4,829 bases of DNA, taken from the IMG/VR virus record IMGVR_UViG_2579778982_000027, one strand, 5' to 3'. Positions 192-1,208 of this stretch are shown here, one piece after another. The position numbers were made by a program, and so were the translations under genes. The notes under the pieces were generated by a model. That model saw only the letters and a program-made list of their open reading frames with translations, was not told the DNA's origin and did no database searches. Within the stretch, counting starts at the first letter, position 1, and each line of letters begins with the position of its first letter. This stretch comes from a virus (Duplodnaviria > Heunggongvirae > Uroviricota > Caudoviricetes).

Positions 192-581
192 TTATCTTCC
201 TATTGCGATAATCATAGTTCCATACAAACCATTTCCGGTTGATACTTTTAAGGTTACTGATGTCCTTGTTGTCGTGTACCCCATAAGTTTAAAGGTCGGA
301 GCAGCGGTTAATGAGCCATCTGACCATAAGGCACTAACAGCCAGTGCGCCTGAAGGAAATGCAATAGGGAAATTACCTGTAGTTCCGTTAGTGTCCGCCC
401 CATAAACATTCATCGAAAACATTTGGACAATATGACCACTTGGTAACTGAAACCAGTTTTTGCCAGATGGAAATGCAGACATATCTGGTATCTGATTTTC
501 CCCTGTTCCCACATTCCGTTTTGCCGCTTCTCCCAAACCAACGTTTAAGAAAATGCAGAGATTACGGCTAACTGGCATCAT
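192..581 (-). CDS. Phage tail-fibre protein, C-terminal variable (receptor-binding) domain fragment
   Basis: 129-aa ORF whose N-terminus carries [26 protein letters not shown], the conserved constant/variable junction motif of side tail fibres in Mu/P1/e14-type invertible systems (from memory). Its 5' end faces the invertase start, as stfE faces pinE in e14. An in-frame TAA (591-593) lies just upstream, so no constant N-terminal fibre portion is attached in this orientation. Confidence 0.6.
   Translation of the reverse strand: [129 protein letters not shown]
528..553. other. Candidate hix/gix/cix-like 26-bp crossover site for the invertase
   Basis: TTCTCCCAAACC-AA-CGTTTAAGAAAA: two imperfectly inverted 12-bp half-sites around a 2-bp core, with the AAACC/NN/GTTT centre typical of Hin-family sites (consensus half-site roughly TTATCAAAAACC). 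It lies in the codons for the junction motif (IFLNVGLGE), 55 bp before the invertase ATG. Match to consensus is partial, about 10/12 and 8/12 per half. Confidence 0.3.
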
Positions 582-608
582 CCCCGGTTTTTATTCAGGG
601 GATCCATC

Positions 609-1208
609 ATGCTTATTGGCTATGTCCGCGTATCAACAAATGACCAGAATACAGAATTGCAGCGTAACGCGCTGGAGTGCGCAGGATGTGAACTGATTTT
701 TGAAGATAAAATCAGCGGAACGAAATCAGCCAGACCGGGATTGAAAAAACTGCTCAGAACGCTATCAGAAGGAGATACGCTGGTTGTCTGGAAGCTGGAC
801 AGACTGGGCAGAAGTATGAAACACCTGATCACGCTTATTGAGGAATTGCGGGAAAAAGGTGTTAATTTCCGTAGTCTGACGGACAGCATTGACACATCAA
901 CACCCATGGGGCGTTTCTTTTTTCACGTCATGGGAGCTTTAGCCGAAATGGAACGTGAATTAATTGTAGAGCGTACACTGGCCGGGCTGGCAGCAGCACG
1001 CGCACAAGGACGCATTGGCGGACGTCGCCCGAAGTTGACAAAAGAACAACACGAGCAAATAGCGAGGCTGATTAAAAACGGTCATGACAGGAAACAACTG
1101 GCGATCATTTACGACATCGGCATATCGACGATTTATCGTTATCACCCTGTAGGCGATATACAGGCTGAAGAAACAATCAGGCAGATTCAGGAAAATGAAA
1201 ACCGCTAA
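609..1208 (+). CDS. Serine site-specific DNA invertase, Hin/Gin/Pin/Cin family
   Basis: 199-aa ORF with family hallmarks: MLIGYVRVSTNDQ (catalytic Ser in VRVST), LVVWKLDRLGRS, SLTDSIDTS, MGRFFFHVMGALAEMERELIVERT, GRIGGRRPKL and a C-terminal HTH (LAIIYDIGISTIYRY). Closely resembles Pin/Gin as I recall them. SD-like AGGGGA sits 6 nt before the ATG. Appears intact. Confidence 0.95.
   Translation: MLIGYVRVSTNDQNTELQRNALECAGCELIFEDKISGTKSARPGLKKLLRTLSEGDTLVVWKLDRLGRSMKHLITLIEELREKGVNFRSLTDSIDTSTPMGRFFFHVMGALAEMERELIVERTLAGLAAARAQGRIGGRRPKLTKEQHEQIARLIKNGHDRKQLAIIYDIGISTIYRYHPVGDIQAEETIRQIQENENR

Follow-up and report, generated by a model that had tools for sequence, protein, structure and literature searches.

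Introduction

The question raised by this locus is whether a DNA invertase gene facing one tail-fibre cassette and one crossover site is the relic of a host-range switch or the visible half of a switch that is still whole. The stretch analysed (the window; 4,829 bp, Caudoviricetes, viral record IMGVR_UViG_2579778982_000027) was identified by an exact match of its tape-measure protein as the entire contig JICA01000128.1 of assembly GCA_000691105.1. We hold with high confidence that a complete site-specific inversion switch of the Gin/Pin type lies in the tail-fibre operon of a P88-like (Xuanwuvirus, P2-related) Escherichia coli prophage, and that the window covers the half nearer the invertase gene. 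It contains one site and one cassette because it is a complete short contig that ends inside an insertion sequence (IS).

The switch module in the window

Gene identities in the window were taken from the list of open reading frames (ORFs) and from Pfam scans. The closest complete genome, that of E. coli JP538 (record L001), served for comparison. The module and the IS that interrupts it comprise the following features (protein lengths in amino acids, aa):

1-89, minus strand: end of the IS66-family element ISCro1, matching the ends of two copies annotated as ISCro1 (L003, L004) at 89/89 bases (100%)
90-97: 8-bp target-site duplication TCTAATGC (JP538 L001 12001-12008)
86-190, minus strand: stub of the fibre-assembly (chaperone) gene tfa' of the silent cassette, from alignment to JP538 tfa'
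192-541, minus strand: silent alternative C-terminal receptor-binding cassette Hv' of the gp53-like_C type, without a start codon of its own (Pfam PF21882, 5.5e-9)
528-553, plus strand: right-hand 26-bp crossover site TTCTCCCAAACCAACGTTTAAGAAAA, pix-type, core dinucleotide AA at 540-541
554-608, plus strand: spacer from the crossover site to the start codon of the invertase gene, the presumed invertase promoter/leader
609-1208, plus strand: serine DNA invertase, 199 aa, catalytic Ser9 (Pfam Resolvase 6e-52, HTH_7 1e-12)
630-693: candidate Fis-dependent recombinational enhancer within the 5' coding region of the invertase gene

The 26-mer at 528-553 occurs once in the window at up to three mismatches (0 expected from 200 shuffles), and its reverse complement codes for F-L-N-V-G-L-G-E, so that the site lies within the junction codons (GLGE) of the cassette. 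For comparison, sites were taken from the actual sequence records of e14, P1 and Mu. The e14 site adjoining pinE in E. coli K-12 (TTCTCCCAAACCAACGTTTATGAAAA) shows a single mismatch to the window site, the left site of e14 being TTCTCCCAAACCAAGGTTTTCGAGAG; the P1 record holds TTCTCTTAAACCAAGGTTTAGGATTG and TTCTCTTAAACCAAGGTATTGGATAA, and gix of Mu is TTCCTGTAAACCGAGGTTTTGGATAA. An AAACC-NN-GGTTT core is common to the window site, Mu gix and P1 cix. These alignments mark 528-553 as a genuine crossover site of the Din family, e14 (pix) type. In JP538 the best inverted repeat shared with the fibre gene H falls exactly at the two crossover sites, and the inversion breakpoints in O157:H7 and in the IS-bearing sister strains described below map to 528-553.

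The ORF at 192-581 (minus strand; 129 aa) is divergent from, and head-to-head with, the invertase ORF at 609-1208 (plus strand), and its C-terminal 84 residues match Gp53-like_C (E-value 5.5e-9). The ATG at 581 was considered as the true start and rejected as an annotation artefact, because positions 542-581 lie outside the invertible segment; the cassette proper begins at the crossover core (540-541) and ends with the stop codon at 192. It differs from its JP538 counterpart by two non-synonymous substitutions (window positions 314 and 322; LWSDGSL versus LWLDGTL), and the expressed 493-aa fusion protein of the sister strains carries the version of the window at both. The adjacent tfa' stub consists of 33 native codons, one IS-derived codon and a stop, compared with 147 codons in intact tfa'; a 34-aa gene is called at the same tfa'/IS junction in record L021.

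The invertase is identical to WP_000905082.1 of JP538 and O157:H7 and matches the Gin crystal structures 4m6f and 3uj3 with an E-value of about 1e-91 (4m6f, 1.5e-91). Its identity to known invertases ranges over 73-83% in the alignment (Gin 73%, a P1 Cin 75%, PinE 82%, the P88 invertase 83%). The motif YVRVS(9)T is invariant among the window invertase, Gin, Cin and Pin, and residues Q150, R153 and L154 (Hin Q151, R154 and L155; Hin numbering minus 1) are invariant in the alignment, while the basic residues K46, K47 and R50 (Hin positions 47, 48 and 51, helix B) are conserved in the window invertase. In Hin, Q151, R154 and L155 and the basic helix-B residues contact Fis or the enhancer and are uniquely conserved in Fis-dependent invertases (McLean et al., PMC3798978). 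Within the spacer, e14 pinE, Mu gin and the P88 invertase gene share the conserved blocks TGGCATCAT and GCTTTT with the window, and the DNA of 630-693 is (near-)invariant across the window, pinE, gin and P88. Pattern matching located two G-N13-C 15-mers, one at 630-644 (about 96 bp from the crossover core) and one at 679-693 (about 145 bp). This stretch is proposed as a candidate enhancer because its position agrees with that of the hin enhancer, which lies about 100 bp from a hix site and has Fis cores of 15 bp (PMC3798978); we infer that inversion would depend on Fis and the enhancer.

A preliminary description of the window had read it as carrying an intact Hin-family invertase, a hix/gix-like site at 528-553 in the junction codons of the cassette, and no second site or cassette, and had assigned the whole to a Min/Pin/Gin-type tail-fibre host-range switch, all of which agrees with the results above, by which the switch belongs to the Din family (Gin/Cin/Pin/Hin/Min) (Resolvase and HTH_7 domains with Ser9; a complement coding for FLNVGLGE and alignment to the e14, Mu gix and P1 cix sites; one occurrence at up to three mismatches). 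Its head-to-head minus-strand fibre variable domain is likewise present, with Gp53-like_C and the junction motif, but the ATG of that ORF at 581 is not a real start. The description overlooked the IS end in bases 1-89 and the reduction of tfa' to a stub of 34 codons.

The ISCro1 insertion and the contig end

From the comparison of two reference copies ISCro1 was delimited at 2,699 bp with 8-bp target duplications, the termini being GTAAGCGGCTCG... and ...GAGCCGGTTAC and the GTAA-type inverted repeats GTAAGCGGCTCG... and GTAACCGGCTCA.... In the window the terminal inverted repeat GTAACCGGCTCATTTAAACCG runs inward from base 89, and the first 12 codons of the IS gene tnpA are read from position 36 to position 1. 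Bases 1-89 are without a match in JP538, none of the complete E. coli RefSeq genomes covers at least 80% of bases 1-200, and no exact match to the IS/tfa' junction was found in the GTDB species-representative genomes. An IS portion extending over the whole of 1-135, suggested by two blastn matches that reached 128-135, was rejected, as the alignment places the boundary at 89/90 and the remainder is chance extension. A near-identical contig of another assembly ends 2 bases beyond window position 1; a contig end inside ISCro1 is a typical repeat-induced assembly break.

The other half of the switch

A simple insertion of ISCro1 predicts a far-side product of 104 aa starting from Met44 of tfa', and this exact sequence is present in the protein collection. 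It is encoded on JICA01000116.1 (L020; 3,534 bp), a contig of the same assembly, GCA_000691105.1. JICA01000116.1 starts with 94 bases of the opposite ISCro1 end and then matches JP538 from 12008 down to 8569 with 99.94% identity, the order being IS end, target-site duplication, tfa' remainder, tfa (200 aa), H (intact, 537 aa), gpI and an incomplete gpJ. The domains of the H fibre protein are Phage_tail_fib, Phage_fiber_2 and Collar. The octamer TCTAATGC abuts the IS on both contigs (L020 95-102, as the complement), which is the signature of simple IS66-family transposition.

Inside H lies the partner site TTCTTGATTACCTTGGTTTGGGAGAA (L020 1487-1512; JP538 L001 10591-10616), inverted with respect to the window site. 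The two sites share their inner half-sites and the AA/TT core but not their outer halves. In the source genome the switch is structurally complete, because the partner site, H, tfa and the tfa' remainder are found on JICA01000116.1 together with the complementary IS end and the same target-site duplication. A search for an inverted partner site and a full-length fibre gene, as the preliminary description had suggested, thus found both on JICA01000116.1; its statement that they must lie left of the window was correct in that sense, while its other option, that they had been lost, was not.

In the reconstruction with ISCro1 the two cores are 4,555 bp apart. The IS-free, uninterrupted module of JP538 has 18-nt repeat arms 1,820 nt apart and measures 1,848 bp from core to core. 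In the source genome J and I would come first, then H with its constant part, the left site and the Collar-type tip; tfa and the 3' portion of tfa' would precede ISCro1, beyond which the tfa' stub, the gp53-like tip Hv', the right site and the invertase gene would follow, with gpU and the tape-measure gene next on the other strand.

Evidence for inversion

An in-silico flip fuses H, up to ...GVLDYL, in frame to the cassette ending in ...IAIGR and yields an open 493-aa protein. This exact fusion exists as called protein WP_077819687.1 and others. In assembly GCA_001285845.1 its gene comes after gpJ and gpI, with the 34-aa tfa' stub and then ISCro1 on its other side. Records L017 and L018 have the same junction of IS end, target-site duplication and tfa' remainder, but here the Collar cassette abuts the invertase gene (JP538 position 10600 joined to 12438); L019 and L020, with the window, show the opposite, unflipped state. 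At least one inversion postdates the IS insertion, because these two pairs share the IS junction yet differ in orientation, and the enlarged segment is therefore still a substrate.

The same kind of event is seen between the complete genomes of two O157:H7 strains. FRIK944 and BB24-1 have flanks that are 100% identical and, between repeat arms of 15-18 bp, a 1,917-bp segment in opposite orientations (99.95% identity); the invertase protein is the same as that of the window. The flipped H ORF of BB24-1 is open for 501 aa. In the PGAP annotation of BB24-1 (L015 1470-2975) the flipped H is given as two pseudogene fragments and a short gp53-like protein, though the 501-aa ORF is unbroken. Sequencing and polymerase chain reaction (PCR) have revealed variation of the fibre loci of P2-like prophages, and of the e14 locus, within E. 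coli cultures (Goldberg et al., PMC4272514).

Weighing the interpretation

Several points weigh against the reading of a complete and working switch. Among complete E. coli genomes there is no match of at least 80% coverage to the flipped left junction (H constant part plus this gp53-like cassette). The partial matches in complete genomes reach 60-70 nt beyond the crossover and end there, at the point of divergence of the gp53-like cassettes, and the fusion of H to this particular gp53-like cassette was found in draft assemblies only. In the sequences compared, both orientations appear between strains only. Din invertases cross-complement, and the flips in the sister strains could for this reason be the in-trans work of another resident Din invertase. 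The joining of JICA01000116.1 and JICA01000128.1 through one ISCro1 copy appears probable from the matching target-site duplication and synteny. A simple consensus scan upstream of the invertase gene found no sigma-70-like promoter, and the candidate Fis sites are proposed solely from positional homology and the G-N13-C pattern.

The alternative that survives best is that the switch is complete but inert: the prophage would be defective or the invertase silent, the orientation frozen in this genome and the differences between strains ancient. The failure to detect a promoter-like site upstream of the invertase gene would fit this, as would the arm without a chaperone and the decay in relatives, in which gpD is cut to 266 aa (JP538, O157) or an IS lies in the tape-measure gene (L017). 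Nevertheless, at least one flip occurred after the IS insertion among strains only a few single-nucleotide polymorphisms apart, the invertase ORF, its catalytic residues and both sites are intact, and homologous loci of P2-like prophages vary within single cultures (PMC4272514). We therefore regard an inert switch as quite unlikely.

Far less probable is an explanation of the opposite arrangements as assembly artefacts, or as products of homologous recombination between inverted IS copies rather than of the invertase. GCA_001285845.1 does carry a second, inverted ISCro1 in its tape-measure gene, and short reads cannot resolve a path through a 2.7-kb IS. However, the H-constant/gp53 and Collar/invertase junctions are located at the 26-bp sites, in unique sequence and 0.45-1.4 kb from any IS, and the IS-free complete-genome pair of O157:H7 shows the same clean inversion bounded by arms of 15-18 bp. 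A fixed fossil, in which the invertase and an orphan cassette survived the loss of the partner site and the constant fibre gene and no inversion could occur, would suit the single site and cassette of the 4,829-bp window and the chaperone gene cut by the IS, but it is scarcely credible given the partner site, full-length H, tfa and tfa' remainder on a contig with the complementary IS end and the identical target-site duplication, and given sister strains that have the same IS junction in both orientations. The term "remnant" used in the preliminary description is for this reason abandoned: the partner site and the 537-aa H are present in the same assembly, and both orientations occur in the sister assemblies and in the O157:H7 pair.

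Comparison with known systems

The closest counterpart by site and enzyme is the P segment of e14 with Pin (pinE, stfP/tfaP, tfaE/stfE): the crossover sites differ at 1 of 26 bases, the AA core is shared and the invertases are 82% identical. Both systems have a constant fibre part, two facing cassettes of tip plus chaperone and an invertase gene just outside the right site, and the start of the Collar-type tip (GLGEGSALPVGVPVPWPSATPP...) is identical to that of stfE. In contrast to e14, which is a lambdoid remnant, the host element here is a P2-like (P88-like) myovirus prophage, the second cassette has a gp53-like tip, the C-terminal tail of the invertase is 15 residues longer and ISCro1 lies in the segment.

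With the G segment of Mu (Gin) and the C segment of P1 (Cin) the switch shares the enzyme family, 26-bp sites with the AAACC-NN-GGTTT core, the constant/variable fibre architecture and an enhancer-like conserved stretch in the 5' coding region of the invertase gene. Mu has a GA core, unlike the AA of P1 and of the present prophage; the cassettes show no sequence relationship, and the segment measures 3.06 kb in the Mu record versus 1.86 kb for the uninterrupted segment here. Min of p15B and Hin of Salmonella belong with the Gin and Cin systems.

P88 (genus Xuanwuvirus, Peduoviridae) has the same order of H, tfa, tfa', Hv' and invertase, with gpU-T-E'-E-FII-FI on the opposite strand and then D and ogr. 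However, the DNA similarity to P88 ends at about position 598. The tips of P88 are Mu-like (S/S'), and so are its sites, which are of the gix type with a GA core (TTCCTGTAAACCGAGG...); this prophage instead combines e14-like sites of the pix type with Collar/gp53-like tips. On this comparison the switch module is therefore a mosaic replacement on a P88 backbone. The module moves between phage types: an identical 129-aa silent-cassette ORF with its site adjoins a Cin-type invertase in a P1-like element (L007), and the same cassette pair occurs both in that element and, in the flipped state, in an unrelated non-P2 prophage with a truncated invertase (L013, E. coli FDAARGOS_144).

At the P2-like prophage loci of the enteropathogenic E. 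coli (EPEC) strain E2348/69, invertase-driven inversion of the fibre C-terminus has been demonstrated experimentally, with variants co-existing in cultures (Goldberg et al. 2014, PMC4272514). The likeness is one of described behaviour; the strain is a different one, and one of its loci is a shufflon with three repeats, compared with the two sites found here.

Proposed mechanism

By analogy with the family, dimers of the invertase would occupy both inverted 26-bp sites and, together with two Fis dimers, form a synapse on the enhancer at a supercoiled branch. Ser9 would then cut all four strands at the 2-bp AA/TT core, one pair of dimers would rotate by 180 degrees and religation would invert the segment, as is known of the synapsis and rotation of invertases with Fis (PMC3798978, PMC3575834). 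The flip would join the constant N-terminus of H (about 380 residues) either to the Collar-type tip, the state found here, or to the gp53-like tip, each tip being followed by its own chaperone gene.

ISCro1 has transposed into the gp53-like arm's chaperone gene, tfa', which enlarges the segment from about 1.86 to about 4.56 kb with both sites kept. In the current orientation the expressed fibre, with its Collar-type tip and intact tfa, is unaffected by the IS. The flipped state would produce an H::gp53-like fibre followed only by a chaperone stub of 34 aa. P2/Mu-type fibres require their Tfa chaperone, and because this gene is broken by the IS we infer by analogy that the gp53-like arm is probably non-functional.

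A more far-reaching interpretation would be that the segment flips efficiently with its 2.7-kb IS66-family element, that the switch has become an on/off toggle of functional fibres instead of a means of host-range alternation, and that in the sister strains a second, inverted ISCro1 in the tape-measure gene adds a nested inversion of the invertase-gpU-T' block by homologous recombination. Were there such a toggle, it would arise from the loss of one arm's chaperone to the IS; we consider this combined interpretation doubtful.

Prophage setting

The remainder of the window contains the following features:

1198-1227: perfect 12-bp inverted repeat, a terminator-like bidirectional hairpin between the convergent invertase and gpU genes
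1235-1729, minus strand: P2 gpU gene (Pfam)
1736-4543/4579, minus strand: tape-measure gene, PhageMin_Tail (Pfam)
4530-4766, minus strand: gpE' segment (ORF list/Pfam)

Across 598-4829 the window has 93.9% nucleotide identity to phage P88 (Xuanwuvirus, Peduoviridae) with identical gene order, and its positions 90-4829 are 99.9% identical to the prophage adjoining ihfA/pheT in JP538. Sequence comparison thus places the window in the tail region of a P88-like, P2-related E. coli prophage; the switch module left of 598 is not P88-like.

A slippery heptamer of the classic P2 type, T-TTT-TTG, is located at 4742-4748 (minus strand), where the gpE frame overlaps the E' frame (ORF 4530-4766); programmed -1 frameshifting of the tail assembly chaperone pair would be expected at this site. 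The right end of the window is a contig break within the gpE/E' region for which no cause is apparent, and relatives run on collinearly. In the tape-measure gene, four substitutions within 250 bp (2378, 2448, 2459 and 2624) are all that separates the window from its sister contig L008, and JP538 lacks them too; the cluster could be a small recombination patch or the assembly collapse of two prophage copies. The second ISCro1 of GCA_001285845.1 (L017 4799-6465, L021 7638-12367) lies at the window equivalent of 3816, inverted with respect to the tfa' copy, and on that contig the invertase-gpU-T' block is in the reverse of the expected order, due either to an IS-mediated homologous inversion or to an unresolvable scaffold path.

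The FI-FII-E-T-U block of P88-like prophages (L006, L008, L002) is inverted relative to gpD and ogr when compared with the canonical P2 order, which is kept in another P2-like, invertase-bearing prophage near pflB (L005). An invertase-driven origin of the inverted FI-U block was also considered; the repeat at 1198-1227, as listed above, resembles a terminator hairpin. In JP538 (L001 19135-19988) and O157:H7 (L014 11245-12098) the annotation gives gpD as a protein of the VgrG/Pvc8 family with 266 aa and, besides, a partial fragment, compared with 369 aa in L006 and L008, which suggests that the JP538 and O157:H7 prophage copies with a split gpD are defective.

Significance

The Gin/Pin-type fibre switch is a textbook system, carried by hundreds of E. 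coli prophages. The locus described here is of this already known kind and shows the well-known behaviour of a Din-family switch, its sole twist being that an IS removes the chaperone gene of one arm. It carries little weight for biology, and the splitting of the module by an IS is a small curiosity that matters mainly as a trap for assembly and annotation. A 129-aa "gp53-like domain-containing protein" beside such an invertase is a silent cassette without a start of its own, what looks like an orphan half-switch at the end of a contig can simply reflect a break in the assembly caused by an IS, and PGAP may label a flipped fusion fibre as pseudogene fragments despite an intact ORF. Of minor interest is that, on evidence from nature, a segment of the Din type has still inverted after an IS had enlarged it 2.5-fold.

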